NCBI GenBank assembly: GCA_963806155.1
Contig: CAWDXC010000018.1
Coordinates: 112,605-176,604 of the forward strand
Origin: an uncultured Actinomycetes bacterium
GTDB lineage: Bacteria > Actinomycetota > Thermoleophilia > RBG-16-64-13
Length of the DNA: 64,000 nt
Direction: 5' to 3'
The translations under genes were made by a program, and so were the position numbers. A model generated the notes under the pieces. It ran no database searches. It was not told the origin of the DNA and was given only the letters and a program-made list of their open reading frames with translations. This document shows positions 6,858 to 45,083 of this stretch, piece after piece (the stretch's first letter is position 1; each line of letters opens with the position of its first letter).

Positions 6858-8140
6858 TCCGGCTCGAGGGACTCCAGGTGGCCGCGGGCGACTTCTCGCT
6901 CCGGTCGACGACCTGTCGCTGGATAAGGGCGAGTTCCTCGTGGTCCTCGGCCCCACCGGGTCGGGCAAGACCGTGCTCCTCGAGACCGTGGCCGGGCTGC
7001 GGCGGCCCAGGGGCGGGCGCATCTGGTTCGGCGACCGGGACGTGACCGACGAGCCGCCGGAGCGGCGGCGCGTCGGCTTCGTCTATCAGGACTATGCGCT
7101 CTTCCCGCATCTGACCGTGGCCGAGAACATCGCCTTCGGCCTGAGCACGGGGGCGGCCGCGGCCGCGCGCGCAGCGTCCGGGCGGGCGGGGGTGGCCGAG
7201 CGGCGCGGACAGATCCGGGGCGGACCGGAATCGAGTGGCATCGCTGGCATCGCTGCTCGGTATCGAGGAGCTGATCGACCGGTACCCCGACAGGCTTTCC
7301 GGCGGGGAGCAACAGAGGGTCGCTCTCGCCCGGGCGCTCGCCATCGAACCGGACGTCCTCCTGCTGGACGAGCCGCTCTCTGCTCTCGATCGCCAGACGC
7401 GTCGAGAGTTGAGGATCGAGATGAAGCGCCTGCACCGAGAGCTGGGCGCGACCGTCCTTCACGTGACCCACGACCTCGACGAAGCGCTTGCGTTGGGGGA
7501 CCGGATAGCTGTGTTGATCGATGGCGATCTGAGACAGATCGACACACCGGAGGACGTACTTCAGCGGCCCGCCGACGGGGAGACAGCCCGATTGCTCGGG
7601 ATGACCAACGTGTCCCCCGTGGTCGGCATATACCGGGAAGACGGGGTCGGGAAAGTGAGATTGGCGAGAGGCCCAGGCGCGGGTGGTGGCGTCGGCCGGA
7701 CCACAGCCGACGGAGCCGGCGGCCTCGAGTTGGGGGTCGGCGTCCTCTCCGATAAGCTGCCGGGCCGCAACCTGGTCGCCGTGGTCCGAGCAGAGGAGAT
7801 CGTTCTTCTCCCTCCGGGGGAGGCGATCCTCGAACGCGTCACACGGGATCGGGTGGGCTCGGCCGACCCATTGGCTGTTGGTCTGCCGAGCGGGACCTTG
7901 CTGGACGGGACCGTTCTCGACGTACAGATGCGGAGCGTCCACGCCTCGGTGGAAGTGGACGTGCCCCCCGTTTTCACCGTCCACGTACTGCGTCCCGAAG
8001 TGCAGCGGATGGGCCTCAGCGTGGGTTCACGAGTAAGGCTGTGGATACCTGACGAGGCCGTTCACGTCTGTCCAGAGACAGCTCGGGGAGTCAGAGCGCT
8101 GATTCGAAGATGCCCGCCAGTTCCTCCGGTGTCAAGGTGA
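6854..8140 (+). CDS. wtpC: ABC transporter ATP-binding subunit with TOBE-like C-terminus (WtpC/ModC); frameshifted
   Basis: Walker A GPTGSGKT, VYQDYALFPHLTV, LSGGEQQRVALARAL, LLLDEP, HVTHD; ATGA overlap with the permease. Confidence 0.85.
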
Positions 8141-9260
8141 TCGGGTTGGCCTTCATGCTGCTGGCTCGTACCGCTTTCTCCGCGAGCTCGGCGGTAACGT
8201 CGCGCGGGATGCCATAGCTACCGAGTGGCGGGACGCGGAGCTCGGCCACAAGATCGTGGAGCCACTGCACGGCGTCCTCGGCGGCGGCTCCACCGCGACC
8301 CGTGAGCAGAGCGGCGATCCGTCGATAGCGGTCGAGCGCCTCGCTTTGCGGGGCGCGTTCGCGCAGGGCGCGGAGGTTGGCTTCCACGACAGGCGGCAGC
8401 AGGGCCGCGCAGACCGCTCCATGGGGAACCGGGTGCATCCCTCCCAGCGGCCCGGCCAGGCCGTGGACGGCGCCCAAGCCAGCGTTGGCCAGAGCCAGCC
8501 CCCCGAACAGGCTAGCGACCGCCATATCCTCACGTGCCGCCTCGTCCCGCCCGTCTTCCACCGCCCGTGGCAGCGACCGTGCTACCCGCTCGATCCCCTC
8601 CAGGCAGAGGCCGTCGGTCATGGGATTGGCCCGAGTGCTGACGAAGGGCTCGATCAGCTGCGCCAGGGCGTCCATGCCGGTGGTCGCGGTGACGGCCGGG
8701 GGGAGGTCGTAGGTCAGCTCCGGATCGACCAGGGCTACCTTCGGTAGCATGAGAGGGCTGCGCAGGCTCACTTTGACCCGATGCTCCGGGGCCGCGAGCA
8801 CGGAGTTGCGCGTGACCTCCGACCCTGTGCCGGCCGTGGTCGGTATGGCCATGAACGGAGCAGGGGACCGGGTCAGCTCTTGTCCCCGACCGACGATCTC
8901 CAAGTAGTCCAGAAGCTCGCCCGGATTCGTCAGCATGGCGGCGATGGCCTTGCCGGCGTCGATGGCCGCACCCCCGCCGCACGCGATGACCTGATCACAG
9001 CGCTCGCTCCTACCGATATCCGTGCCGTTGCGGACCGTGTCCACCCGTGGCTCACCGACGACGGGGAAGATGACCGCCTCGACCCCATGCTCGCTCAACA
9101 CCCCGAGTAGAGGTTCGGCGCGGCCGGGTGTGCTGCCCGTCACCACGAGCGCCCGCCGGCCCAAGCTCCGGGCGAGCGGGCCGGCTTCGCGGAGCGTACC
9201 CGGACCGAAGACGATCCTTCCGGCGGTGGCGAACTCGAAGCGCACGTCACCAATCCTCAT
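8091..9260 (-). CDS. Iron-containing alcohol dehydrogenase
   Basis: GGGAAIDAGKA, IPTTAGTGSEVT, GMDALAQLIE, GAVHGLAGPLGG, PHGAVCA. Confidence 0.92.
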   Translation of the reverse strand: MRIGDVRFEFATAGRIVFGPGTLREAGPLARSLGRRALVVTGSTPGRAEPLLGVLSEHGVEAVIFPVVGEPRVDTVRNGTDIGRSERCDQVIACGGGAAIDAGKAIAAMLTNPGELLDYLEIVGRGQELTRSPAPFMAIPTTAGTGSEVTRNSVLAAPEHRVKVSLRSPLMLPKVALVDPELTYDLPPAVTATTGMDALAQLIEPFVSTRANPMTDGLCLEGIERVARSLPRAVEDGRDEAAREDMAVASLFGGLALANAGLGAVHGLAGPLGGMHPVPHGAVCAALLPPVVEANLRALRERAPQSEALDRYRRIAALLTGRGGAAAEDAVQWLHDLVAELRVPPLGSYGIPRDVTAELAEKAVRASSMKANPITLTPEELAGIFESAL

Positions 9261-14098: not shown

Positions 14099-14458
14099 AT
14101 GAGCCAATGGAATGATTTGACCGACCTGACCTGCGATCGTCCGTTCCTGATCACCGAAGTACGGCTCGAGGGGAGCGGCATCACCATCGCCGGCGAATTC
14201 GAGTTGCCGCCACTGGCCGGCCTGCGCTACGAGGACCAGGTCTTCGTCAGCGAGTTCGTACGGAGCCACGGTTCCATCAAGCACATGGAGAAGGCGTTCG
14301 GCGTCAGCTATCCCACGGTGAAGAACCGGCTGAACCGGATCACCCAGCAGCTTCGCCTGGTCGAAGTGGAGCACATCTCCGAGCACGACGAGATCTTCGA
14401 CCTGCTCGAGCGGGGGGAGATATCGGTCCAGGAAGCTGCGGAAAGGCTGGAGCAATGA
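14099..14458 (+). CDS. DUF2089-family HTH protein
   Basis: GEFELPPLAGL..EDQVFV..FVRSHGSIKHMEKAFGVSYPTVKNRLNRI; C-terminal LERGEISVQEA. Confidence 0.85.
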   Translation: MSQWNDLTDLTCDRPFLITEVRLEGSGITIAGEFELPPLAGLRYEDQVFVSEFVRSHGSIKHMEKAFGVSYPTVKNRLNRITQQLRLVEVEHISEHDEIFDLLERGEISVQEAAERLEQ

Positions 14459-14736
14459 AAGTACCGCCCTATGCGCTGAGGGTGCGGGTAGCCGAGCGGG
14501 AACGCACCAAGTTCCGCATCTGGTTCCCGCTTTTCCTGCTTTGGCCTCTCATACTCGTCTTCCTCCTGCTGACGCTGATCGCCACCGTGGTCGTCGATGC
14601 TGCTCAGCTCATCGCGGGCCGGCGGCAGCGCTACACGCGCCTGGTGCTGGGATGCCTTGGGGTCGTCGGCGAGACCCGGGGCACAGAAGTCTTCATCCAA
14701 GACAAGGGCCGGACCGTCGCAGTGACTGTCCGCTGA
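14455..14736 (+). CDS. Small membrane protein
   Basis: ATGA-coupled to the DUF2089 gene; hydrophobic segment IWFPLFLLWPLILVFLLLTL. Confidence 0.7.
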   Translation: MKVPPYALRVRVAERERTKFRIWFPLFLLWPLILVFLLLTLIATVVVDAAQLIAGRRQRYTRLVLGCLGVVGETRGTEVFIQDKGRTVAVTVR

Positions 14737-14753
14737 CTCGAAAGGAGCACACC

Positions 14754-15179
14754 ATGGGTCAAGAACGCGAACGTATCCTCGATCTGCTGGCCTCGGGCAA
14801 GATTACGGCCGAGGAGGCCGGGCGCTTGCTTGACGCCCTCGAGGCGCGCTCGTCGCAAGCCGTCGCCACCGGGACGATCCCCGAGGTCAAGCCCAACGGG
14901 ACCCCGAAGTACATGTTCGTCAAGGTCCTGAGCGCGAAGGGTGACAATGTGAACGTCAAGGTGCCGCTCAGCCTGGTCCGGGCGGGGCTCAAGCTCACCT
15001 CGTTCATACCGCAACCGGCCATGGAGCAGATCAACAAGTCCATGGGCGATCAGGGATTGTCCATAGACCTTCTCAACTTCAAGGCCGAAGACCTGGAAGA
15101 GCTGATCGAAGCTCTGCGCGAGATGGAAGTTAACGTGGACGCGGTCAACGGGGACAACGTCCGGGTATATTGCGCGTAG
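14754..15179 (+). CDS. SHOCT-like N-terminal domain protein (YvlB/LiaX-N type)
   Basis: AAAGGAG RBS; ERERILDLLASGKITAEEAGRLLDAL; VNVKVPLSLV. Confidence 0.75.
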   Translation: MGQERERILDLLASGKITAEEAGRLLDALEARSSQAVATGTIPEVKPNGTPKYMFVKVLSAKGDNVNVKVPLSLVRAGLKLTSFIPQPAMEQINKSMGDQGLSIDLLNFKAEDLEELIEALREMEVNVDAVNGDNVRVYCA

Positions 15180-15225
15180 CTCGAGACGGAGATTCCTGGA
15201 GCCGCGGCGGCGTCGCGCCGCGCGC

Positions 15226-17345
15226 TCAGTCGGGGGAGCCTGCCGGCTCCCCCTCGGCTTTTCTGACCCGGCACAAGATCCCGCGCAGGGTCACGGAGCC
15301 CAGCTCGCGGGCGTAGGGCGGGTCGTTGCTGGTAAGCACGTTCAGATTGCACTCCGCCCAGCCGTGCAGATCCCCCTCCTTCTCGGGGAAATACCAGCCG
15401 TGCTCGAGGATCACCACCCGCGGGTCTATCTCGTCCGACAGCACGGCCCGTTGCTTGATGGCTCCCCTCTTCGTGCTGATCTCCACCCAATCGCCGGGCT
15501 CGATCCCGTACCGGGCCGCCGTGTCGCCGTGGATGGTGACGAGCGGCTCCGGATGGGCCCGCCGGAGTGACTCGATCTGTCGGCCTCCGGAATGGACGTA
15601 GCCCGGTATCTTGGAGTTGGTGAGCACCAGGGGGAACTCCTCGGCCAACTGGGGGGCGCTGAACGGTGACTCCGGCGGCTCTCGGTAGACGGGCAGAGGA
15701 TCGAAGCCCCATTCTTCCAGCTGCCGCGAATACAGCTCGACCTTACCCGACGGTGTGTCGAAGCCGGTATGAAGATGGGCGCCGTATGCCTTCTCCCCGG
15801 TCAGGACGCCGATCTTGCGGAACTCGGCGAAGGTGAGACCGGCCGGCTTCAGCAGATAGTCGAGCACCTCCTCATCCGTGTCCCAGAAGTGCTCCCCCAG
15901 CCCGAGTCTCCTACCCAGCTCGCTCACGATGCTGAGGTCCGAGCGGCACTCGCCCACCTGCGCCACCTTCTGGATGATGCTGGCCACCGGTGCGTTCTCG
16001 GCGTTGTTGATGCTGTCGATCTCGAGGAATATCGCTACCGGGAGCACGATGTCGGCCAGCTCGGCCGTGGGGGTCATGAAGTAGTCGCTCACCGCCAGGA
16101 AATCGAGGCTTTCCAGAGCCTCTCTCACTTCCTGGACGTTGCTGTAGGTGTGGAGGAAGCTGCCTCCCTGGATGAAGGCGGCCCGCACCGGATAGGGCTC
16201 GGAGGTGAGCATGGCCTTGATCAGCTTCTGGGGCAGAGCGGAGAAGTAGTTGGGGAGCACCTTCTCTTCTGCCCCCACCCTTTCGTACCGTTTCTTCAGG
16301 GGGACCAGATCGCGCAGGTGGAGCTGCGGGGAACCACCGAACTCCACTGCGGGGGGAGCCCAGTCGATCTCACCGCCAGGTATCCCGAGGTTGCCGGTGA
16401 TAGCCCGCAGGATGGCAGCGGCCCGGTTGAACTGGTAGTTGTTGATGTTGTTGTCCTGGCCATTACCGGAGTAGATGACGGCCGGTCTGCCGCCGAGCGA
16501 TAGTCCTGGCCAGTTCCTCGATCTGGGCCGCCAGCACCCAGGTGATATCGGCCACCTGCTCGGGCGGATAGGCCTGTACGTGCTGTCTTAACTCCTCGAA
16601 ACCCACCGTCCAATCTCGGACGAAGTCTTCGTCGTAGAGCTCCTCGTTCACGATCACGTTCAGCAGCGCCAGAGCCAGGGCCAGGTCCGAGGAGGGGCGC
16701 GGCCGGATCCAGAGGTCGGCCTGCTCGGCCAGGGCGGTCTTTGCCGGGTCTATGACGACCAGCGTAGCCCCCCGCTCCTTGGCCGCCAGGATGCGAGACC
16801 CCTCCGGATGCGAAGTGGCGGTCAAGTTGGCGCCCCACGCCACGATCGTGCGCGGGCGGGAAGTCGATATCGGGATGAGACAGGAAGCCATAGGTGCCGA
16901 GCATGCCTCGCAGTCGGGCGTGGAAGCAGATGTACGACATGGAAGCGATGTTGGGAGTGCCGAAGGCATTGGCGAGTCGGGAGAGGTAGCTGTCCCCGTA
17001 TCCTTTGGCGCACCCCTGCATGAAGGCCACGGAGTCGGCGGAGTATCGCGCCTTGGTCTCGTCGAGACCTCGGGCGATGGTGTCCAGGGCTTCGTCCCAA
17101 CCGATCCGCTCCCACGTGCCCGCGCCCCGGGCTCCGGCCCTCTTCAGAGGGTGGGTGAGGCGGTAGGGACTGTTCAGATACTCGAGCGCCGCTTGACCGT
17201 TGATGCACAGCGTGCCCCGGTTGACCGGATGGTCGGGGTCGCCCTCGATCCTGACCGGCCGGCCGTCTTCCAGGTGGACCAGCATGCCGCAGCCGGCCCC
17301 ACACCAGAGTTGACACGTGGTTCTGAGGACTTCTTTGTTGCTCAT
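15226..17345 (-). CDS. Mo/W-bis-PGD (DMSO reductase superfamily) enzyme, acetylene-hydratase-like subgroup; frameshifted
   Basis: [4Fe-4S] CQLWCGAGC...EGDPDHPVNRGTLC; RLTHPLKRAG; WDEALD; GTPNIASMSYIC; WGAN; DYFMTPTAELADIVLP; GFDTPSGKVELYS; C-terminal IHGDTAARYGI..GDWV. No Tat signal. Confidence 0.85.
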
Positions 17346-30909: not shown

Positions 30910-33329
30910 ATGAGTAAAGACGATGTGAAGACTTCCACGGGTCGGGTGAAGGTCGATACCGCACGCATCGATCGGCTGAAAGAACAACTCAGGAGCACTC
31001 CTGCTGAGGTCGATTTCGAGCGGGTCAGGATCATGGAGGAGGTGTACGATGACACTGCCGGCTACCAGCAGATCATCTGCAGAGCCAAATTCATGGCAAC
31101 CCTGCTCGAGAGGAAAGCGTTGTACATCGACGACAACCTCTTTGTGGGCAGCATGGCAAGCACCGTCAATGGCATCTACACCTATCCGGAATGGCAAGTG
31201 GATTGGATGAAAGAGGAGAATACCGTTGAGAGAAGTGTAAGACCCCGGAAGACCGGAAGGCGAACGAATGGGCGCTCGAATACTGGGACAAGCGTGCGCT
31301 GAAGCCCCGCACGCTTGAGATATTCGAAAGGAAGTATGGTTTTGATCCGCGCCCTTCCTATGCTTCCGGCAATGTCATTAGTTTCTTTGACTGGCCCGGT
31401 GGCGGCGGCAACCTGGACTATCCCCGGGTGTACAGGAATGGGCTTGCCAGCATGATCAAAGAGGTCGAGGAGCGAGAGGCGGCCCTCGAGATGCGGCTGC
31501 CGAATGCCGACAAGTTCGCCTTCTATGAAGCCAGTCTCATTGTCATGAGGGCCTTTATTCGCCTGGCTCACCGTTATGCTGAACTGGCCAGAGAGATGGC
31601 GGCAAAAGAGACGAATCCCGTCCGCAAGCAGGAACTGCTCGACATCGCCGAGATCTGCGAATGGGTGCCCGAGCATCCGGCCCGCAACCTGAGAGAAGCC
31701 ATCCAGTGCCACTTCTTCTGTCACATCGTCTCGGAGATCGAGCAGGTGGGTTGCGGCTATTCTGAGGCTTACCTGGGCCAGAACTTCGAGCCGTTCTATC
31801 AGGCCGACAAGGCTGCCGGTCTGATCGGATATGACGAGGCAGTCTTCATGTTCGAGAACCTCGTCATCAAGCTGAACGAGATCGGCTATTACTATGGCGA
31901 GAAGGTCGCCTTGCAGAACTCTGCCGACCTGGGTCAGAGCATCTCGCTCGGAGGCTATACCGAGGATGGGGATGATGCCACCGCAGAAATGGATTATGTG
32001 ATCCTGGATGCATGCAACTACCTTCACTTGCCACAGCCTCCGCTGACGTGCGTCTACACGGAGAGAATGAGCGGCAAATTCCTGGAAAAGGTCCTGGATG
32101 TGATCGGCACCGGTATCGGCATGCCTCAGTTCGTGAATGGCGATGTGATGGTGAAGCGCGCCTTGAATCTGTTCGCTGACTCCAAGAAGGGCCTCACACT
32201 CGAAAAAGCCAGACGCACCGCTATCGGCGCCTGCGTGGGTTCATACATTCCCTACGAAACAGGTCACCCGGTGGAAGGGCAGCCCAACCTGGGGAAGGTC
32301 ATCGAGTTGACGATGAACGATGGCTTCGATCCCCGCACCAAGCAGCAGGTCGGACCCAAGACCGGGGATCCCGAGACCTTCAAGACCTTCGAAGAACTCT
32401 ACGCGGCATTCCAGAAGCAGATAGATTTCAATGAGGAGGTCCTCCGCCGGGGTGCATGGATCGCCAGCATGCTGTGCGCTGACTTCCTCCCGACTACCTG
32501 GCGCTCGCTCCTGACCGGGGGCTGCATTGAAACCGGCACCGAGGTCTGGAATGGCGGAGCCAATTACTACACAACTGCGCAGATCGTTGTCGGTGGCGTT
32601 GACGCCGCCAACTCGCTGATGGCGGTGAAAAAGCTGGTCTATGATGACAAGAAGATCACCATGGCCGAACTGAAGAAGGCGCTGGCCGCCAACTTCGAGG
32701 GATACGAGAATGTACGCAAGATGTGCTATGAAGCTCCCAAACATGGCAACGACATTCCTGAAGTGAACAAGCTGACTCGTAGGGTGTTCAATAGTATCTA
32801 TGACGCTTTCCAGAAGGTAGATGGCGGCGGCAACTACATCAGCCAGGACATCAAATCAGCGCCGGATGCCTATACCAAGAGCATCCACAACCTGATGGGG
32901 CTGGTGACGGGCGCGCTGCCGAACGGTAAATATGCCGGGGTTGCACTCACCGATGGAAGTCTGTCGGCCATGCCGGGCACCGACGTCAACGGACCTACCG
33001 CGTTGGTGATGTCTGCGGCGAAGAGTCAGGATGCCATCAAGTACACCGCAACGCACATGAACATGAAATTCCCGCCCGATCAACTGAAAACACGCAAGGG
33101 CCGGGATAACGTGCTGAATCTTGTCAAGACCTATTTTGACAATGATGGCTATCACATTCAGTTCAATGTCCTGGACACCGCAATACTCAGGGACGCACAG
33201 AAGCACCCTGAAAACTACCGCGACCTTGTGGTTCGGGTGGCCGGTTTCAGCGCTTTCTTCACCAAACTGGCCCCGGGTGTGCAGGATGAGGTCATTGCTC
33301 GTACCCTGCAGAGTTTCGGCACGAACTGA
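30910..33329 (+). CDS. Glycyl radical enzyme (PFL superfamily) of uncertain specificity; one frameshift near 31235
   Basis: C-terminal HIQFNV..LRDAQKHPENYRDLVVRVAGFSAFF (glycyl radical); Cys loop AIGACVG; CEWVPEHPARNLREAIQ; about 800 aa when joined. Confidence 0.92.
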
Positions 33330-33377: not shown

Positions 33378-33452
33378 ACACCTGCTGATCGCGCGCGACG
33401 CGAAGACGTGCACGATCAGAAGGAAGGTACATCATGATTACGGAAGTAGGTC

Positions 33453-34613
33453 ATGCCAGTCTTCCTGAGACGGATCGCCATCATGGTGGGCGCCGGCTTC
33501 GTTCCCGGCATGAACGCCGTGGTGATGGGCGCGGCCCTGGCTGCGGGCAAACTGGGATGGGAGATCGTCGGCATCCGCGATGGCTTCGACGGGCTGCTGC
33601 ACCCGGATCGCTACCCCGACGGCGGGCTGGTGACCCTCAGCCCCCAACTGGTCGAGAACCTGGATCCGGCCGCCGGGGGCATCCTGGGCCAGTCGGCGCT
33701 GGGTCGATCCGTTTCATGTCCGCACGGTCGACGAAGACGACATGGTCGAGGAAGTGGACATGTCCGACGAGCTGCTGAGAGGGCTGCAGGCGGAGCAGAT
33801 CGATGCGGTGATCTCCGTCGTCGGCGGCCGCGGGCTGAGCATCCTCTACAAGCTCCATCGCAAGGGGCTCAACACGGTGTGCATCCCCCGCTCGATCGAG
33901 AACGACATCGCCGCCACCTCGGTGTCCTTTGGCTTCAACAGCGCCCTCAGCTTCACCATCGAGATGCTCGACCGGGCTCGTCAGGCGGCCCAGTCTGCCC
34001 GCAAGATCGCCGTGGTGGAGGTCCTGGGCGAGCAGGCCGGATGGATGGCGCTGCAGGCCGGCATCGCTGTCGGCGCCGATGCGGTGCTGATTCCCGAGAT
34101 CCCCTGCGACCTGCAGACGGTGGCCGCGCGGTTGAAGGAAAAGATGACACCCAGGCGGCCGTACGGGCTGGTGGTGGTGGCCGAAGGGGCGAAGCTCGGT
34201 CGATGACCCACAAGCCCAGGCAGAAGCCATCCTCGCTCAAGGCTTCCTGTCGCCGCTGGCAACCGGCGAGGCCAGCGACCACGTCATCCAGCGATCGGGC
34301 CAGGCCGCCGAGACCGTGGCCAGCAGGCTGCAACTGCTGATCGCCGAGGAAACCCAGCCACTCGTCCTGGGTCTCTGGGTCAGGGGCGGCGCCCCCACCG
34401 CCGTCGACCGCCAACTGGGGCTGGCCTACGGGGCCGGGGCGGTACGGGCCGCTGAACGCCGGCAAGAACGGGGTGATGGTGGCTTTCGTGCCGCCCGACA
34501 TCAAGTTCGTGCCGCTGGCGGAGGCGATCAACAAGGTCAGGACCGTGCCCGCGGACAGCGAATTCGTGCAGATCGCCCGCTCGCTCGGCATCAGCCTGGG
34601 GAGGGAACTATGA
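33453..34613 (+). CDS. Phosphofructokinase (PfkA)-fold protein with substituted catalytic motifs; frameshifted
   Basis: RIAIMVGAGFVPGMNAVV, GIRDGFDGLL, VVGGRG, IPRSIENDI, SFGFNSAL, VVEVLGEQAGWMAL, ADAVLIPEIP, VVVAEGA, LGLWVRGGAPTAVDRQLG. Confidence 0.85.
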
Positions 34614-35550
34614 ACACCCCATCCACCAATCAATCCGGCTCTGACCGGCATCGTTCTCAATATCCAGCGCTATTGCAGCCATGACGGTCCGGGCATCCGC
34701 ACCAACGTCTTCCTCAAGGGCTGCTCGCTGCGCTGCAAATGGTGCTCCAATCCCGAAAGCATCCACCCCAAGCCGGAGCTGGCCTACGACCCCCAACATG
34801 TGCATCGGCAAGAAGGCATGCGGCCTCTGTCTGAAGCCGCCCTTCCCGAAGGCGCTTTCTACGTCGTCGAGGGCGCCGACGACAAGGTCAGGGTCAACTG
34901 GGATCTGGCCACGGACGTCGACGAGGCGTTGGTCTCGCTCTGCCCGACCAACGCGCTGGACATGTACGGCAAGACGGATGACCGTCGACGAGGTGCTGGA
35001 CGAGGTGGAGAAGGACGCTTCCTTCTACCGCAATTCCGGCGGCGGCATGACCCTGAGCGGCGGCGAGTGCCAGCTGCAGCCCGACTTCGCCGCGGCCCTG
35101 CTGGCAGGGCGCCCACGAGCGCGGCATCAACACGGCCATCGAAACGGCCTTCAACGTGCCCTGGTCTTTCTGCGAAAAGGTGCTGCCCCACGTCGATACG
35201 GTGCTCCACGACCACAAGCTGACCATCCCGGAGCGGCACAAGAAGTGGACCGGCGTGAGCAACGAGCGCGATCCTGGCGAACATCAAGAAGGCCTACGAG
35301 ACCTTTCCCGACATCGACTTCATCGCCCGCACGCCGCTGATTCCCGGCGTCAACGCCGACGAGGAGCACATCCGGGCGGTCCTGGCGTTCATCCGCCCCT
35401 ACAAGAACGTGATCGACTACGAGCTCTTGCCCTATCACCGCTTTGGCCTGGGCAAGTACGAGAGCCTGGGCGTGGTGTATGAGCTGGACGACTACAAGAC
35501 GCCGTCCGACGAGCTGGTCGCGCACCTGCAGGCCAAGGAGGGCGGGATGA
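34610..35550 (+). CDS. Glycyl-radical activating enzyme (radical SAM); frameshifted
   Basis: [35 protein letters not shown] (CxxxCxxC), [36 protein letters not shown]; ATGA-coupled to the PFK-like gene. Confidence 0.9.
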
Positions 35551-36855
35551 ACACTGACAACCTGATTACGGCCGAAGAATTGGCCGCGCGCCTCAAGATG
35601 GCCGCCGAAGGCATGAAGAAGAAGCCCGGCTTGATGAAGTCCACCGTCGGCTACATGGAACTGGTCCACAAGTACGTGGAGCGGATCGTCACGGCCAAGG
35701 AGAAGGGCAAGTTGGTGGTCGACCCACGGCACCCAGCAGCCCCTCGAGATCTACGAGGCGATGGACGTGGTGGGCGTCTTCAACGAGTTCTGGGGCGTCA
35801 TCTCGGACGTCGTGAAGGTGGAGTCCGTCCCCGAGGCCTTGAGCATCTCGCCGTCGACCGGCACGCCGAAGGAGGTCTGCTCGTTCTTCCGGAACATGGA
35901 CGGCCTGATGCACGCCGGCAAGTGGCCCAAGACGGACTGTCTTTCTCTACGCCACCTCCTCGTGCGACAACGTCAAGGCCTTCCACACGCTGGGCCGGCG
36001 CTACGGCATCCCCGACTTCGGCATGGAGCGGCCCTACCACCCGTTCACGCCCCAGGCGATGGAGCACTGGAAGAACGAGCACAAGCGGCTGATCGCCTTC
36101 CTGGAGGAGCAGACCGGAAAGAAGCTGGACTACGACCGCCTGAAGGAGACGGTGCGCCTGTCCTACCGTCTCACCGAGCTCAGCCCTCGAGATCGACGAT
36201 CTCGTCGCCCATGTCCCGACGCCCATGTCCGCCGAATGCTTCGGCGGCGTGCTGCTGGCGCTGCGCCTGATGTGCGGGACCCAGGAGGCCGTGGACTTCC
36301 TGGAATGCGCTGAAGGCGGAGCTCCAGGAGCGCGTGGACAACGGCATCGCCGCCGTCAAGCCGGAGCGCTTCCGGGTGATGTGGAGCAGCTTCACCCCGT
36401 TCTGGGACACCGGCGCTCATGGCCTTCATGCAGCAGAAGTACGGCGCGGTCTCGGTGTGCGAGGTGCTGTCAGCGCTGGCGCGGGGAGGCGAACTGGCTG
36501 CTCGATCCGGACGATCCGCTGGGCAACCTCGCCTACCGGACCCAGCTCGCACCCGGCAACTGCCAGTACTCGCCCTCGATCGACTGGGCCGCGCAGGTCG
36601 TCGAGCAGGCCCGCAAGTTCAAGGCGGACGGGGCGATCTTCAACAACAACTGGGGCTGCAAGCAGGCTGCGGGCCTCGGCCCGATCGTCAGGGACGAGCT
36701 GCTGCGTCACATGCAACGTGCCGACGCTCACGCTCAACGTGGACGTGATCGACGCCACCTTCACCAGCCGGGCCGAGGTCGAAGCCCAGCTGGACAGCTT
36801 CTTCGAGATGATCGAGGCGAGCAAGGCCTACCAGGAAAGGAGGGCAATCGCATGA
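35547..36855 (+). CDS. 2-hydroxyacyl-CoA dehydratase / class I benzoyl-CoA reductase subunit (O/BcrB-like); frameshifted
   Basis: AAGGAGG RBS; EVCSF, SCDNVK, LIAFLEEQTGKKLDYDRLKE, KADGAIFNNNWGCKQ, PTLTLNVDVID, QLDSFFEMI. Confidence 0.8.
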
Positions 36856-38005
36856 ACACGCCACTGCAAAGCTCTGAACGAAATGCAAAGGCTGACCTCT
36901 CCGTTCCCGGAGAGCGTCACCGTCAAGGACTGGAAGGCCGCGGGCCAAGAAGGTGATCGGCTGGGTCAACCCCTACGTGCCGGAGGAGATCATCTACGCG
37001 GCCGGGATGCTGCCCTTCCAGGTCACCGGCAACAACGAGCCGGTCCAGATGCAGGGGGCCGAGGCCTACATCCTCGTCCAACTCCTGCTCCTACATCCGC
37101 ACCTGCTGGCAGCTGCAGCTCGACGGCAAGTACGGCTTCCTGGACGGCCTGGTCTCCTCCAGCATGTGCGACCAGGACAAGCGGCTGTACAGCGTGTGGG
37201 AGTACTACCAGAAGCTGCCCTACATGGACATCCTCTACGCGCCGCGCAAGCGCGACGAGGAGGCGGTCAAGCTGTACCTGGCCGATCTCGAGGACTTCAG
37301 GGACCGGCTCTCCCAGTACGGGCTGAGGCGGATCCCCGACCGGGACATCGCCGACGCGATCCGGGTCTACAACCGGGGACGCGAGCTCATGCACCAGCTC
37401 TACGAGCTGCGCAAGCGCGATCGCCCGCCGGTCACCGGGGCCGAGGCCCTGGAAGTGAGCAAGGCGGCCGCGCGCCTGCCGCGCGAGCGGTTCAACGAGC
37501 TGATGGAGCAACTGCTCGACGAGATCCAGCGCAGCGGGCGCGAGATCAAGAAGTCCCGGCGCCTGATGGTCATCGGCAACGACCTTCACAACGCCACCCA
37601 GATCGCCGCGCTCGAGTCGCTGGACGCGGTGGTGGTCGTCGACGAGATGAACTGCGGCATCCGCTACGCCTGGGGACAGGTGGACACCGCAGCTGCCGCC
37701 GATGGAGGCGCTGGCCCGCTACTACGTGCTGGGCCGTCCGGTCGACATGCACACCTGGAATTCCGACGGGCGACTCGAGTTCATCGGCGAGATGGCCGAG
37801 CAGTACAAGGTCGACGGGATCGTGTCCGAGATCGTGCGCTTCTGCACCTACAACGGCTGGGACAAGTTCGATCTCAAGAAGCAGATGGAAGCAGCGCGGC
37901 ATCCCGATCCTGGAGATCGACCTGGAGTACGGCCACCCGGCGGGAGCGCAGGTGAAGATCCGCGCCGAGGCGTTCATGGAGATGCTGGAAAGCCGGGCCA
38001 GTTAG
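36852..38005 (+). CDS. 2-hydroxyacyl-CoA dehydratase / class I benzoyl-CoA reductase subunit (N/BcrC-like); frameshifted
   Basis: IGWVNPYVPEEIIYAAGMLP, SCSYIRTC, MCDQ, VVVVDEMNCGIRY, YKVDGIVSEIVRFCTY, GIPILEIDLEY..AQVKIRAEAFMEML. Confidence 0.82.
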
Positions 38006-38034
38006 CCCGGCGGCCACAGAAAGGAGAACAGAGT

Positions 38035-38837
38035 ATGGCTGTCGTTGGAATTGACCTGGGATCGCAGTCCACCAAGGTGGTGATCCTGGAAGGCGACGTG
38101 ATCGTCGGCGGCGCCTCGCTGCAGACCGGGGAATCGGCGGAGACCGAGGCCCGGATGGCGGTGCAGGAGGCTCTGCGGCAGACGGGCCTCAAGCGCGAGG
38201 ACCTGAAGGCCGCGGTGGCGACCGGCACCCTCAGCGTGCCCGTCACCGCGGCCGTGCAGCGAAGCAACGCTCGGCGGCGAGTTGCATCGCCACGGGAGCC
38301 TACTTCCGCTTTCCCCAGGCGCGGACGGTCCTGTATATCGGCGCCGACAGCTCGATGGCCATCCGGATGTCGGCCGATGGCCAGGTCGAGGACTCGGTGA
38401 AGAACGAGCGCTGCGCGGTGTCCTCGGGGGCGCTGCTGGACATCGTGAGCCGCATGCTGGAAATCCCGGTGGAGGAGTTGGGCCCGCTGTCGCTGCAGGC
38501 CACCGCCCCGCAGACAGTGTCCAGCCGGTGCGTGGTCTTCGCCGAGGGCGAGATCCTGTCCTTCATCCACAAGGACCCGCCGGTCCCCGTTCCCGATGTG
38601 CTCGCGGGCGTGAACCAGTGCATCGCCGACGGCCTGTGGGGGATGGTGCAGAAGGTGGGCGTGCCGTCCGAGCTGCTGCTGTGCGGCGGGGTGGCCCGGA
38701 ATGTGGGCATCGTCAAGGCGATCGAAGCCCACCTGGGCAAGCCGGCGCTGGTGCCGCCGCAGCCGCAGTACGTGCGGGCACTGGGCGCGGCCGTGTTCGC
38801 CCGCCAGCTCCAGCAGGAAGGAGGTGCGTCATGCTGA
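38035..38837 (+). CDS. BadF/BadG/BcrA/BcrD-type (ASKHA) activator subunit P-like, degenerate ATP motifs; frameshifted
   Basis: GIDLGSQSTKVVIL, KNERCAVSSG, SSRCVVFAEGE, CGGVARNVG, ALGAA. Confidence 0.82.
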
Positions 38838-39691
38838 CGATGGGAATCGACATCGGTTCGCGCAGTTCCAAGTGCGTCATCCTCGACGACGGGCAGTTGC
38901 TGACCTACGGCAGCATCGAGACCGGCCCCAACATCGTCAAGACGGCCCAGGCGGTGGTGGAGGCGGCCGTCCACCGCCGCACCGGCCTGTGGGGCGAGTA
39001 CCGGATGCCGTTGCCCGACGTGAAGGTCGACCATCTGAAGATCGAGGACATGGCCTGCATCGTGTCGACAGGCTACGGACGCGCCGTCGTGCCCTTTGCC
39101 CATCGCGCCATCACCGAGATCAGCTGCCACTGCCGCGGAGCGCAGTGGTTCGTGCCCGGGGTCTCCACGGTCCTCGACGTCGGCGGGCAGGACAGCAAGG
39201 GCATCCGGGTCGGTGCGAAGGGCGAGGTCGCCGACTTCGTGATGAACGACAAGTGCGCCGGCGGCACCGGTCGCTTCATGGAGATCGTCGCGGAGGTGCT
39301 GCAGGTTCCCCTGTCCGAGATCGGTCCGCTGTCGCTGCAGAGCACGAAAGTCCTGCCGTTCAGCACGACCTGCGCGGCCTTCGGCCGGGGGGCGGCGGTC
39401 GCGATGCTGAAGGAAGGCGAGCGCAAGGAGGACATCCTGGCCGGGCTGCACGAGGCGATCGCCACGCGGGTCACGGCACTGGTCAGGAAGGTCGGCATCG
39501 CGGACAAGTTCGTGATCACCGGCGGCATCGGCAGGAATGTCGGGCTGGTGAGCAAGATCGAAGAGAGGCTCGACGGGTTGAAGGTCACCCTGCCGCAGGA
39601 ACCGATGATCGTCGGGGCCGTGGGGGCAGCCCTGTTCGCCCTCGACCGGGCCCGGAAGAAGAACGCTGATAAAGGAGCCGAAAAGCTTACC
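38831..39691 (+). CDS. BadF/BadG/BcrA/BcrD-type (ASKHA) activator subunit Q-like
   Basis: GIDIGSRSSK, STGYGR, TEISCH, LDVGGQDSK, MNDKCAGGTGRFME, STTCAAF, TGGIGRNVG, GAVGAALFA; as sequenced it reads through into the rhodanese remnant. Confidence 0.88.
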
Positions 39692-39859
39692 ATGAAAGCA
39701 AACGAGTTACTCAAACGCATCGAGGCCAAAACCGCGCCGGTCATCATTGACCCGCGCAGCGAGATCGAATTCAAGAAAGGCCACATACCGGGCGCCATCA
39801 ATGCCCTCGAGTTCGATATAGCAACGCAAACAGAGGAGACCATCGGTGGACACCGCTAA
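39692..39859 (+). pseudogene. Truncated rhodanese-domain remnant
   Basis: MKANELLKRI..VIIDPRSEIEFKKGHIPGAIN, then ends before the active-site Cys loop; overlaps the next start. Confidence 0.55.
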
Positions 39860-41009
39860 CAGTGGAAAAGATATCTACGAACGACTGGTGGATGCGCTGG
39901 ACGCACTTCCCAGCGGTTTCGCCAGAACGCCTTCAGGGGTGGAAACGAAGCTGATCAAAATGGCGTTCACGCCCGAGGAGGTCTCGCTTGCCGGCCAACT
40001 GAGCCGCACCCCCGAGACTGCTGCTGAGATCGCGCAGCGGGCCGGTCTTGACGAGACCCAGGCAACGGCGATACTCGAGAGCTTGGTGCCAAGACGTCTG
40101 GTTCGCCTGGACTCGCCTGGGATGGCCGCTCCCGGCCTGACCGCTCCGGTCGAGGGCGTGAGGAAATACCGGCTGGGCCCCTTTCTGGTCGGCTGGTACG
40201 AAGCCAGTATGCGGCTGCTGGACAAGGAGTTTGCCGAACTCTTCGAACAGTATGTGAGTGAGGGTGGAGGTGAGCGGATCTTCTCGCCGCGCCCTGGTGT
40301 GCTTGGCGTCGTTCCGGTACGGGGCTCGCTCAAGCCTGAGTTGATGGAGCTGATGGAGCCCCACCTTGATATAGACGCCCATTTCCAACGGCACGAACGC
40401 TTTCTCGTGATTGACTGCGTGTGTAAGAGGGAGAAGGCCACATTGCATGGCCACAGTTGCGAGCAGCCTATCAGGCGTTGTGGCTTTGTAGGGCTGCCGC
40501 CGCAGACTCCGCTTGGGCAAACCGTGCTTGACCGGCAGGATGCGTCAAAGCTTCTTGCTGAGCTCGGGCAGATGGGGCACGTTCAGCTCGCCTTCTATGG
40601 GTTCACCATGGGAGCGGACTCCCCTCAGTTTGTAGGAACGTGTAACTGCTGCTCGTGCTGCTGTGGGATATTTCAGGGCCAGAAGATGTCGGCCATAGAG
40701 GAAGGGCCGCAGAGATCGAATTACCGTGCCATCGTCGCTGCAGACAAATGTATCTCCTGCGGCGTGTGCATCGAGCGTTGCCCGGTGGACGCCATCGCTG
40801 ATGATGGCATGTCGGCGAAGGTGGAACGGGCAAAGTGCATCGGGTGTGGAGTGTGCGTGATCGGATGCGCATCTGATGCGATCGAGCTCGAGCCGGTATC
40901 TGCCGAGGAGTGGTTCCACGTTCCTTCCAGCTTTGCGGACTGGGAAGAAAGGCGCCTGCAGAATCTGGCTGGCGGAGGTAGTAACGGGCGCGACAGTGAC
41001 GACGTGTAA
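39846..41009 (+). CDS. 4Fe-4S dicluster protein with N-terminal wHTH-like region
   Basis: FTPEEVSLAGQL..ETAAEIAQRAG; DCVCK, TCNCCSCCCG, CISCGVCIERCP, CIGCGVCVIGC. Confidence 0.88.
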   Translation: MDTANSGKDIYERLVDALDALPSGFARTPSGVETKLIKMAFTPEEVSLAGQLSRTPETAAEIAQRAGLDETQATAILESLVPRRLVRLDSPGMAAPGLTAPVEGVRKYRLGPFLVGWYEASMRLLDKEFAELFEQYVSEGGGERIFSPRPGVLGVVPVRGSLKPELMELMEPHLDIDAHFQRHERFLVIDCVCKREKATLHGHSCEQPIRRCGFVGLPPQTPLGQTVLDRQDASKLLAELGQMGHVQLAFYGFTMGADSPQFVGTCNCCSCCCGIFQGQKMSAIEEGPQRSNYRAIVAADKCISCGVCIERCPVDAIADDGMSAKVERAKCIGCGVCVIGCASDAIELEPVSAEEWFHVPSSFADWEERRLQNLAGGGSNGRDSDDV

Positions 41010-43369: not shown

Positions 43370-44546
43370 ATGGGTACGATGACTATCAAGGGCAAGACGA
43401 TGCGTTCCGTGGATGTGGACTGGAACGAGTTCTACTACACCAACTGCCCCCTCGTGTCCCCCAGCAACGTCGACCAGGAGATCGGCTGGGTGAAGGAAGA
43501 GTTCAAGAAGATCGGCATCGCATACAAGTTCCTTCGCTCCACCCGCGAGAACGACTGGTACCCGCACTACGTCCACAACCTCGACAACCTGATGCGCTAT
43601 GGAGGCTGCTTCCCGGCCATCCACGTCCAAGCCGACATCCGCCGCACCCGGCTCATCGGGACGACGCATGTGTACGAAGGCGGCTGCATGCTGGTGCGCG
43701 CCCGGGACCCCATCTACCGCATGAAGGACCTGAAGGGCAAGAAGATCGGCCTCTCCAAGAGCCTGAACATCATCAAGAACGACTGGTGGCGCGTCCAGGA
43801 GGAACAGGGCATCGAGCTGATGCTCATGCTCAACGACATGACCCGCGATGACGTGGAGATCGTGGAGTTCCCCTACCCGGACGACTGGTACGACAACCCC
43901 GCGATGCTCGCCCCCATGGAGAACCCGTCGGAGCTGTGGCTCAAGCGCGACCACAAGCACGACCTGGCCTTCCGCCCGCTGGAGACGGCGCTGCTGAGGG
44001 GCGTCGTGGATGCGATCTACACCCAGACCGGACCCTTCCAGCATAGCCAGGAGCAGACGGGCAAGATCAAGGCCATCGAGAACCTGGCCAACTATCCGGA
44101 CTGGACCCTGCAGGGAGCCAATGTCCCGGCCACCTGCACGGTCAGCGATGTGGCGTGCGAGGAGCACCCCGAGGTGGTCGTCACCATTCTGAAGGGCCTC
44201 ATCAAGGTGGGGCGCTGGGCCAACGAGCACAAGCACGCCGCCGCGGCGATCCTCGACAAGCAGACCTTCTACCTGGACGTCGAGGACACCTACCGGAGCA
44301 TCCTGAACGTCGACCTGGTGCCCAGCCTGTCGCCCTATAACCTGGAAGCCCTTCAGATCAACAAGGACTTCATGCTGAGCCACGGCTACATCGAGCACGA
44401 CTTCGACGTGTTCGAGTGGGCCGCGCCGGAATTCATGGAGAAGGCGGCGGCAGGAGCTGCTCGAGGAAGAGTGGAAGAAGCGCAGCATGGCCAGGCTTCC
44501 CCAGCCGACCACGCTGGAGGAGGCCATGTCGGCGCGGCTCGGGTAG
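43370..44546 (+). CDS. DszB-like (SsuA/THI5-fold) protein, putative desulfinase; C-terminal frameshift
   Basis: YYTNCPLVS, HYVHNL, RYGGCFP, DLKGKKIGL, ALLRGVVDAIY, KDFMLSHGYIEHDFDVFEWAAPEF; no signal peptide. Confidence 0.7.
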
Positions 44547-44579
44547 TTGGTTCACTCCACTCTAGAAGGAGATGACTAC

Positions 44580-45083
44580 GTGACCGATCATCAAGTCCCC
44601 GAGAAGAAGCAGACGGTCCTGGGCCTCTACGTGACGGCCCAAGAAGCCTACGAGATGTGGGAGGTGGACCCCGACGGCGTCAACATCCTCGACGTCCGCA
44701 TTCCCGAGGAGTACCTGTTCGTCGGCCATCCGAAGATGGCGAGGAACATCCCCCTCCTCTTCGTGAGGTACGCCTGGGATGCTGCGAAGAACCAGCCGGC
44801 TGTGCGGCCGAACCCCGATTTCGCCTCCGCCGTCATGAAGGCCTTCGGTCCCGGCGACACGCTGCTGGTCATGTGCCGCTCCGGTGGCCGCAGCGCGCTG
44901 GCCGTCAACGGCCTGGCCAAAGCGGGCTTCACCAGGGCCTACAACATCATCGACGGTTTCGAGGGCGACAAGGTAGACGATCCGGGCAGCGCGTACCACG
45001 GCAAGCGGATGCGGAACGGCTGGAAGAACTCCGGGTCGCCGTGGACCTACGACGTCGATCCAGAGCTGCTTGTGGCTCGCTGA
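44580..45083 (+). CDS. Rhodanese-like sulfurtransferase
   Basis: ILDVRIPEEYLFVGHP, VMCRSGGRSA, YNIIDGFEG, NGWKNSGSPW. Confidence 0.88.
   Translation: MTDHQVPEKKQTVLGLYVTAQEAYEMWEVDPDGVNILDVRIPEEYLFVGHPKMARNIPLLFVRYAWDAAKNQPAVRPNPDFASAVMKAFGPGDTLLVMCRSGGRSALAVNGLAKAGFTRAYNIIDGFEGDKVDDPGSAYHGKRMRNGWKNSGSPWTYDVDPELLVAR

Follow-up and report, generated by a model that had tools for sequence, protein, structure and literature searches.

ATP-driven electron activators of the BcrAD_BadFG type drive reactions of anaerobes that are among the most reducing, while the ATP cost per electron and the need for both ATP sites are still being argued from symmetric homodimers. The window considered here (a stretch of 64,000 nucleotides from contig CAWDXC010000018.1, assembly GCA_963806155.1, of an uncultured Actinomycetes bacterium) holds two such activator genes in tandem, of which the second encodes a canonical ASKHA subunit (subunit 2) and the first a degenerate one (subunit 1). 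An earlier note on this DNA proposed that they form a heterodimer with possibly a single working ATP site, and that this implies an altered ATP/electron ratio of relevance to an energy-limited anaerobe. The locus thus raises the question of what a subunit that has lost part of its ATP site is for, and whether it is more than a broken gene. The reading favoured here, with moderate confidence, is that the pair forms the ATPase part, for electron activation, of an uncharacterised iron-sulfur reductase with four subunits, and that the frame breaks in its genes are errors of the assembly consensus.

Two activator subunits of unequal kind

Both tandem genes (38035-39859; Table 1) match PF01869 and TIGR00241 ('acyl-CoA dehydratase activase'), the C-terminal fragment of subunit 1 with 104 and 132 bits and subunit 2 with 188 and 231 bits, respectively. 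An intact orthologue of subunit 1 (P0005) reaches 159 bits against the curated cut-off of 125.4 for the activase family. Solved matches of the pair in the PDB are HadI, MbdQ and HgdC (E 1e-37 to 1e-65). All motifs quoted in the earlier note are indeed present at 38035-39691: subunit 2 has GIDIGSRSSK, STGYGR, LDVGGQDSKGI, NDKCAGGTGRF and TGGIGRN, and subunit 1 has GIDLGSQSTK, ATGTLS, LYIGADSS, NERCAVSSG, SSRCVVFAEGEIL and CGGVARN.

Each subunit has both cluster Cys (those of subunit 1 lie in NERCAVSSG and SSRCVVFAEGEIL), as well as the phosphate-1 (D-x-G-S-x-x-x-K) and adenosine (G-G-x-x-x-N) motifs. The residues associated with hydrolysis, i.e. the phosphate-2 motif D-x-G-G-Q-D and the Glu of T-E-I-S-C-H, are found in subunit 2, while subunit 1 reads Y-I-G-A-D-S and, in the window, has Ala at the position of the Glu (E69).

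Conservation of the degenerate motifs

Intact orthologues of subunit 1 in two other genomes, P0004 (from G036) and P0005 (from G003, a genome of the same genus), are 93% and 91% identical to the C-terminal fragment in the window and carry the same motifs. A wider family set was made up of these two and the 120 cluster representatives listed from a collection of 5.8 billion proteins (64-96% identity, nearly all ~ 265-270 residues long), giving 122 rows, among them the window's own fragment (P0121). In the numbering of the solved activator DCCP-R, D89 (the phosphate-2 Asp) is Tyr in 120 of the 122 rows, G92 is Ala in 93 and Cys in 22, Q93 is Asp in 120, D94 is Ser in 116 and K96 is Met in 108. 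The E69 position is more variable (Ala in 58, Pro in 38, Glu kept in 23), and the GTG after the first Cys is SSG throughout (122/122). As to what is retained, the phosphate-1 Asp and Lys are found in 119 rows and the adenosine GG..N in 121-122, and the earlier observation that subunit 1 keeps both cluster Cys holds for all 122. Because the altered residues are nearly invariant across these rows, subunit 1 represents a stable family on which purifying selection acts, as opposed to a decaying copy.

The earlier note had allowed that the degeneracy might be a local frameshift artefact. A frameshift does exist in the subunit 1 gene (see below), but it does not create the degeneracy, which P0004, P0005 and the 122 family rows carry; this explanation was rejected.

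For comparison, E69, Q93, D94 and K96 are invariant in 99 sampled canonical (GGQD) domains, while delta-like domains keep the phosphate-2 Asp in 36 of 45 cases and have Glu at the Q93 position in 33 of 45. The two cluster Cys are kept in all 144 sampled domains of these two groups. What is particular to subunit 1 is the greater degree of change, the phosphate-2 Asp having become Tyr and the GTG turn being altered as well.

An obligate pair within a four-gene module

The pairing of the two genes was followed in 7 loci from species-representative genomes (two of which are identical to the G036 and G003 loci) and in 79 metagenome loci, of which 67 have room downstream and 51 have room upstream. 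Subunit 2 lies directly 3' of subunit 1 in 7/7 genome loci and, counted when within -60 to +150 nucleotides, in 65/67 metagenome loci. In the window, the ATG of subunit 2 (38831) overlaps the stop codon of subunit 1 (38835-38837). The two genes thus behave as an obligate pair. On the 5' side of subunit 1, a gene for an HGD-D beta subunit is found in 6/7 genome loci and 47/51 metagenome loci, and the window has the HGD-D alpha gene in front of that; as a rule, both HGD-D genes are found on this side. In G003, HGD-D beta and subunit 1 are separated by a 160-residue open reading frame that matches nothing in Pfam or NCBIfam (locus L030, 10115-10597); it is absent from the window, where the two are only 30 nucleotides apart.

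The two HGD-D genes are broken in the window, and their intact G003 copies (alpha 434 residues, beta 382 residues) were used for comparison. Their best solved matches are BzdO for alpha (75 bits) and BzdN for beta (142 bits), ahead of HadB/HadC, MbdO/MbdN and the double-cubane cluster protein (DCCP). The equivalog scores are far lower than required, with 144.3 bits for BzdN (cut-off 453.8) and 84.6 bits for BzdO (cut-off 448.6), and the beta subunit also stays below the 350-bit cut-off of the double-cubane cluster protein model NF040772 (171 bits). As to the multi-Cys pattern that goes with an [8Fe-9S] cluster, six Cys of the beta subunit stand at or beside BzdN Cys in the printed alignment. 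For the activator genes the picture is the same: an orthologue of subunit 1 scores 92.9 bits against BcrD (TIGR02261, cut-off 312.85), while subunit 2 reaches 167-170 bits against BcrA (TIGR02259, cut-off 578) and 208 bits against BzdQ (TIGR03192, cut-off 380.2; 195 bits for its G003 orthologue). With scores so far below every NCBIfam equivalog cut-off, the module is not a benzoyl-CoA reductase orthologue. Judging from these matches, it belongs to the superfamily of benzoyl-CoA reductases, 2-hydroxyacyl-CoA dehydratases and double-cubane enzymes, with the Bzd-type enzymes as its nearest relatives.

Place of the pair in the activator family

With P0004 as query, HMMER was run exhaustively on 1.84 billion representatives; the 150 hits yielded 162 full-length domains. 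The closest full-length relatives were at no more than 42% identity (fragments of the own family scored higher), and the top hits were the first halves of fused two-domain proteins, of which the second halves pass the BzdQ cut-off (P0246 with 476.7 bits and P0247 with 454.7 bits). Together with the window pair and paralogues from the genome, these domains formed a tree of 172 rows. Subunit 1 falls in the 95* clade of 54 rows, in 47 of which a 'G-A-x' phosphate-2 motif replaces GGQD; this clade includes the BzdP-like halves of fused BzdPQ proteins, a BzdP-like protein of this genome, and the second half of P0289. The latter is a BcrD equivalog (TIGR02261, 401 bits) with the motifs STGDGD, LDMGALHARAI and TSQCASGTGQF. 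Subunit 2 falls in the 99* clade of 13 rows, together with BzdQ equivalogs.

The same genome has a second, intact asymmetric pair (contig C15, 388184-390386), consisting of the BzdP-like protein and a BzdQ equivalog. Its degenerate member reads ATGAGR / IDVGADEARAI / NEKCAAGAGAF; the canonical member reads GTGYGR / LDMGGQDCKVI and passes the BzdQ cut-off with 414.5 bits. Loci from relatives with this type of pair hold both members in 12 cases, and the degenerate member only in 5 more. The asymmetric pair is thus the standard design of the benzoyl-CoA-reductase-like branch and no peculiarity of this organism, because the clade of subunit 1 holds one BcrD-equivalog domain and BzdP-like domains and the C15 pair is asymmetric as well. 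The suggestion that asymmetry is tied to this particular pair, or to an energy-limited lifestyle, is not sustained, given that degenerate subunits are usual in the 54-row clade.

Single polypeptides that fuse a delta-like to an alpha-like domain also occur (P0246, P0247, P0258, P0330 and P0289), in the order BzdP-BzdQ and, once, BcrA-BcrD; they are natural evidence for the two kinds of subunit working as one unit. The C15 pair adjoins two sets of 2-oxoacid:ferredoxin oxidoreductase genes, while the HGD-D genes that would go with it are not next to it, with candidates near 71.6-73.7 kb of contig C9. Among the matches listed, a protein search with the BzdP-like protein of this genome for named BcrD or BzdP sequences gave only close relatives (at least 77% identity), and a tblastn search of plasmids with the BzdQ-like protein gave only YjiL-type and generic activases. 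As no named BcrD or BzdP sequence was obtained in this way, the assignments rely on NCBIfam equivalog scores.

ATP sites and stoichiometry

The altered positions can be interpreted with the help of DCCP-R. According to the available part of its description (PMC9351452), contacts to the three phosphates come from S9-N11 and G92/Q93/D94, the likely base for the lytic water is D94 or E69 (E69Q and E69N each cut the ATPase activity ~ 10-fold), the hydrogen-bond path to the [4Fe-4S] cluster starts at G92/Q93, and two ATPase sites act on one cluster. When P0004 is aligned to 7YYL_E with HMMER, Y-I-G-A-D-S falls onto D89-L-G91-G92-Q93-D94 and the residue after QRS onto E69. One working ATP site is a reasonable expectation, since subunit 1 is without the phosphate-2 Gly-Gln-Asp and usually also without the Glu, to which PMC9351452 assigns gamma-phosphate binding and water activation; subunit 1 would then have lost hydrolysis, with nucleotide binding possibly retained. 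What stands of the proposed heterodimer with one working site is, hence, the obligate gene pair and the lost hydrolysis residues, from which we infer the loss of hydrolysis at one site and the physical heterodimer. That the latter would be of the alpha/delta type and share one [4Fe-4S] cluster is suggested by gene adjacency, Cys retention and clade membership.

In the mechanism that fits these features, subunit 2 (alpha-like) would act as a normal ATPase, while subunit 1 (delta-like) would supply two Cys to the bridging [4Fe-4S] cluster. With its phosphate-1 loop and adenosine motif kept, subunit 1 may still bind a nucleotide, while the replacement of its phosphate-2 residues makes hydrolysis of ATP unlikely. 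For each electron, one ATP would be spent at the site of subunit 2, and the activator heterodimer would dock on the catalytic alpha/beta heterodimer in one orientation only. The segment after the second Cys is of relevance here: it is C-A-A-F-G-R-G in 6/6 orthologues of subunit 2, as compared with C-T-V-F-A-E-S-E in homodimeric activators, F-A-K/R-S-E in BzdQ-like proteins and F-A-E-G-E in subunit 1. These differing segments might represent two docking faces for two different catalytic subunits.

An altered ATP/electron ratio, as had been proposed, cannot be derived from this. The accessible section of PMC11971306 reports 1 ATP per electron for class I reductases, and Table 1 of PMC7317905 gives the same value for both BcrAD and the dehydratase activators. 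Compared with known heterodimeric enzymes, the ratio is not an altered one. A one-site delta/alpha pair would fit this value for the reductases; the accessible parts of the literature draw no such link. One can go further and regard subunit 1 as a pseudo-ATPase kept for cluster ligation and orientation of the pair, i.e. a 'half-archerase' running at half the ATP cost of a symmetric activator, in a module that has spread horizontally among metagenome-assembled genomes labelled with at least five higher taxa. Its company of rhodanese, CoA-disulfide reductase-rhodanese and NMT1-like protein would then point to an ATP-driven, probably double-cubane, reductase of small substrates such as sulfur compounds, and not of aromatic CoA esters; taken together, this extended picture is unlikely. 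In any case, the subunit 1/subunit 2 family offers a ready-made natural test of one-site operation, one site having been stripped while cluster ligation was kept. Degenerate partners being the norm in this branch also bears on annotations and on the 1 ATP per electron reported for class I reductases.

Frame breaks and the quality of the assembly

The gene of subunit 1 is split over two frames (38035 to ~ 38256, and ~ 38262 to 38837); TGTLS belongs to the part upstream of the break and YIGADS to the part downstream. When the DNA is aligned with four orthologous loci, 5 nucleotides stand at the break where a short allele has none and a long allele has 15, which corresponds to …TAAV-KQRS… and …TAAV-NIAAL-KQRS…, respectively. 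Neither allele is rare: of the 122 family rows, 104 have the long and 15 the short allele, while 3 are partial at the site. Contigs from public runs that are without exactly these 5 nucleotides account for a depth of 33.8/33.8 in run X1 (3 contigs) and 14.4/14.4 in run X7 (1 contig), while run X9 has zero depth there. All of these runs (X1, X5, X7 and X9) contain relatives rather than the source sample, each with at most one third of the sampled words, and their contigs are short pieces of related strains (mostly 90-99% alike) that cannot prove the state of the source population.

The breaks are not confined to subunit 1. A phosphofructokinase (PFK)-like gene, the glycyl-radical activase gene and both HGD-D genes upstream are each cut into many frames in the window, and each is a single frame in G003. 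Against G003, positions 33420-38011 contain 20 single-base insertions and 4 single-base deletions, and environmental contigs are also without the bases at 34975, 35937, 36182, 36307, 37075-37077, 37687 and 37892-37893. When frame switches on one strand were counted over the whole genome in 5-kb windows with a codon-position GC model, this 5 kb had 15, compared with a genome median of 3 and a 99th percentile of 11, which places it within the top 5 of 1446 windows. Similar islands are scattered over other contigs. The one at C9:327-338 kb has 22 single-base insertions relative to G003 and 23 relative to genome G002 (with 1-3 single deletions), which break the genes for ADP-forming acetyl-CoA synthetase and acetyl-CoA hydrolase/transferase, both intact in G003. 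RNA genes were considered as a cause of the signal in this island and rejected, as Rfam found nothing there.

The ratio of nonsynonymous to synonymous substitution rates (dN/dS) of the window's subunit 1 against five orthologues is 0.14-0.19, within the 0.12-0.24 found across all 15 pairs and likewise for the other ten pairs. Given that insertions far exceed deletions, that core genes are hit elsewhere and that dN/dS is low, the frame breaks in subunit 1 and in the upstream genes are most likely assembly consensus errors rather than gene decay, and the 5-nucleotide case may be a mis-consensus at a place where long and short alleles coexist. The frame breaks should not be taken as biology unless they are supported by reads. 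A programmed frameshift at 38257-38261 was rejected: no slippery heptamer is present in the DNA, and both the intact orthologues and nearly all of the 79 metagenome loci have the gene in one uninterrupted frame.

The end of subunit 2 is a separate case. Its frame does not stop near 39691 and is open at the place where the orthologues end, and it reads on to 39859 into an N-terminal rhodanese fragment, with the rest of the rhodanese gene missing. An out-of-frame TGATAA followed by AGGAG (at ~ 39665-39675) and then an ATG precede this fragment, which points to the loss of a base or, alternatively, to a genuine fusion brought about by a deletion. In the Phycisphaerae-labelled locus L045, an intact rhodanese gene homologous to the fragment comes directly after subunit 2.

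Alternative readings

Several points weigh against the reading of the pair as a one-site activator module behind consensus errors. The 5-nucleotide insertion is unlike the single-base type found elsewhere in this genome, and run X5 covers 38257-38261 without the 5-nucleotide omission (0/16 depth). The tree comes from FastTree, is rooted at the midpoint and has only local support values, and the BcrD cut-off was reached by just 1 of the 70 representatives tested, so that what is said of BcrD leans on that sequence. Finally, with an Asp in place of Q93 and with intact phosphate-1 and adenosine motifs, subunit 1 may have residual or alternative catalysis.

The first two of these points also speak for real decay, i.e. 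a true 5-nucleotide insertion and real frameshifts in the HGD-D, PFK-like and activase genes, which would make the module a transferred, disused set of recent pseudogenes. The frame breaks do stand in the sequence, and the module looks horizontally acquired, as the window copy is nearer to metagenome-assembled genomes (MAGs) labelled delta proteobacterium or NC10 than to G003. Decay would, however, hardly give single-base insertions and deletions in a ratio of 20:4, core genes in other parts of the genome are broken in the same manner, and the window copy shows neither an excess of amino-acid changes nor, as far as noted in the aligned fragments, substitutions that create in-frame stops. Decay is, on balance, rather unlikely.

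Quite unlikely is a second alternative, in which both subunits hydrolyse ATP, subunit 1 by means of its Asp (at the Q93 position), Ser and Tyr, resulting in a two-site enzyme with ordinary stoichiometry. The near invariance of the replacement residues does suggest function over drift, the phosphate-1 motif with its Lys and the adenosine motif are kept, and the accessible section of PMC11971306 speaks of an ATP-binding dimer for class I reductases that have degenerate delta subunits. On the other hand, all four phosphate-2 positions, the next Lys and usually the Glu base have changed together, these positions never vary in the 99 canonical domains, and exchange of E69 for Gln or Asn is by itself enough for the ~ 10-fold drop in the ATPase activity of DCCP-R (PMC9351452, in part). 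That there is no heterodimer at all, with subunit 2 as a homodimeric activator (as HgdC, HadI and DCCP-R were solved) and subunit 1 as a separate regulatory or scaffolding protein, is very improbable in view of the cluster Cys in 122/122 subunit 1 rows, the strict adjacency with stop/start overlap, the position of both subunits in clades of known heterodimer partners, and the contrast between CAAFGRG in 6/6 subunit 2 orthologues and FAEGE in subunit 1, which fits a fixed asymmetric pair.

Neighbourhood and distribution of the module

Homologues of the 401-residue protein downstream (57-73% identity) are found in 12 of the 86 loci, and of the 178-residue rhodanese in 6. Other recurrent companions are a fusion of CoA-disulfide reductase and rhodanese and a sulfate-permease-family transporter (SulP). 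These companions recur on many contigs that are not related to each other; the loci concerned are L041, L043-L046, L054, L057, L062, L089, L090, L092 and L125. The rhodanese, CoA-disulfide reductase and SulP companions hint at a sulfur-related substrate. A protein of 387-402 residues with winged-helix and two [4Fe-4S] motifs adjoins the module in three loci (the window, L042 at 14188-16543 and L047 at 7786-8964), and is a possible electron donor or redox-sensing regulator of the module.

The glycyl-radical enzyme, its activase and the PFK-like gene adjoin the module only in this genus, in an order that differs between the window and G003 (L030, 5074-14632), and at an identity of at least 55% the enzyme, activase and kinase occur in 0/79 metagenome loci. 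The glycyl-radical enzyme itself is below every NCBIfam equivalog cut-off, with hydroxyproline dehydratase, the PFL2 family and sulfopropanediol dehydratase as best matches.

The module was found in 3 of the 61 related genomes searched, while copies of subunit 1 that are 79-93% identical to P0004 occur in MAGs titled NC10, delta proteobacterium, Phycisphaerae, Bryobacteraceae, Desulfobacterales and Actinomycetes (L041-L047). The synonymous divergence (dS) of the window's subunit 1 is 0.13-0.14 to the copies labelled delta proteobacterium and NC10, versus 0.285 to that of G003. Because the window copy is nearer to MAG copies of other taxa than to that of its own genus, this distribution points to horizontal transfer or binning errors.

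Table 1. Positions in the window of the activator pair and of the features around it
Feature	Position	Strand	Remarks
Glycyl-radical enzyme	30994..33329	+	2-nucleotide insertion near 31232; beside the module only here and in G003
PFK-like gene and glycyl-radical activating enzyme	33468..35534	+	both split by single-base insertions
HGD-D alpha subunit	35547..36855	+	split over several frames here; best solved match BzdO, then HadB
HGD-D beta subunit	36852..38005	+	split over several frames here; best solved match BzdN; best NCBIfam hit a double-cubane reductase model
Subunit 1, degenerate delta-like ASKHA subunit (BcrAD_BadFG)	38035..38837	+	Pfam/NCBIfam matches, motifs, DNA alignment
5 extra nucleotides shifting the frame of subunit 1	38257..38261	+	in a naturally length-variable loop; DNA alignment
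Subunit 2, canonical alpha-like ASKHA ATPase	38831..39859	+	domain to ~ 39655; Pfam/NCBIfam, motifs, tree
Rhodanese N-terminal fragment, 57 residues	39689-39859	+	fused in frame to subunit 2
387-residue protein, winged-helix-like N-terminus and two [4Fe-4S] ferredoxin motifs	39846..41009	+	also in L042 and L047
401-residue protein, no Pfam hit	43370..44575	+	relatives weakly NMT1/THI5-like; recurrent companion
178-residue rhodanese	44547..45083	+	recurrent companion

Comparison with known systems

The module is most readily compared with BzdNOPQ of Aromatoleum sp. CIB (BzdNO 8S02; PMC11971306), which likewise combines two HGD-D catalytic subunits with two ASKHA subunits, and in the tree subunit 2 clades with BzdQ equivalogs and subunit 1 with BzdP-like domains. 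It differs in that the module proteins miss the BzdN, BzdO and BzdQ equivalog cut-offs, and in that its neighbours encode rhodanese, CoA-disulfide reductase-rhodanese, SulP and NMT1-like proteins instead of a benzoyl-CoA pathway. Subunit 1 is also the more degenerate one: BzdP-like proteins still have the phosphate-2 Asp together with an acidic pair (IDVGADE). The Thauera-type BcrA/BcrD (TIGR02259/TIGR02261) is also a heterodimeric ATPase module of one canonical and one degenerate partner, but the substitutions in subunit 1 are not those of BcrD (Tyr for Asp, ADS for ALH, and SSG for GTG).

MbdP/MbdQ of 3-methylbenzoyl-CoA reductase (9GAI, 9GAL, 9GBA) is an alpha/delta pair from this family with a solved structure, and MbdQ ranks first or second among the solved matches of either subunit. 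A search of the accessible literature for the 3-methylbenzoyl-CoA reductase structure, or for a class I structure with its ATPase module, gave no relevant paper. The earlier note had reckoned with characterised P or D subunits that carry the same substitutions as subunit 1; the solved MbdP (9GAI_C), which matches subunit 1 at 87 bits, instead keeps near-canonical motifs (TGYGR, DIGGQT and NDKCASGTG).

With HgdC (1HUX), HadI (4EHT) and DCCP-R (7YYL; PMC9351452), the pair shares the fold, two Cys per subunit for bridging one [4Fe-4S] cluster, and the phosphate-1 and adenosine motifs, while the likeness in GGQD and Glu is limited to subunit 2. Those activators are symmetric two-site enzymes encoded by one gene, whereas here there are two diverged genes, one of them without the phosphate-2 catalytic set. 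The asymmetric pair is, in other words, a known trait of the delta-type family taken further, in an uncharacterised Bzd-like module.

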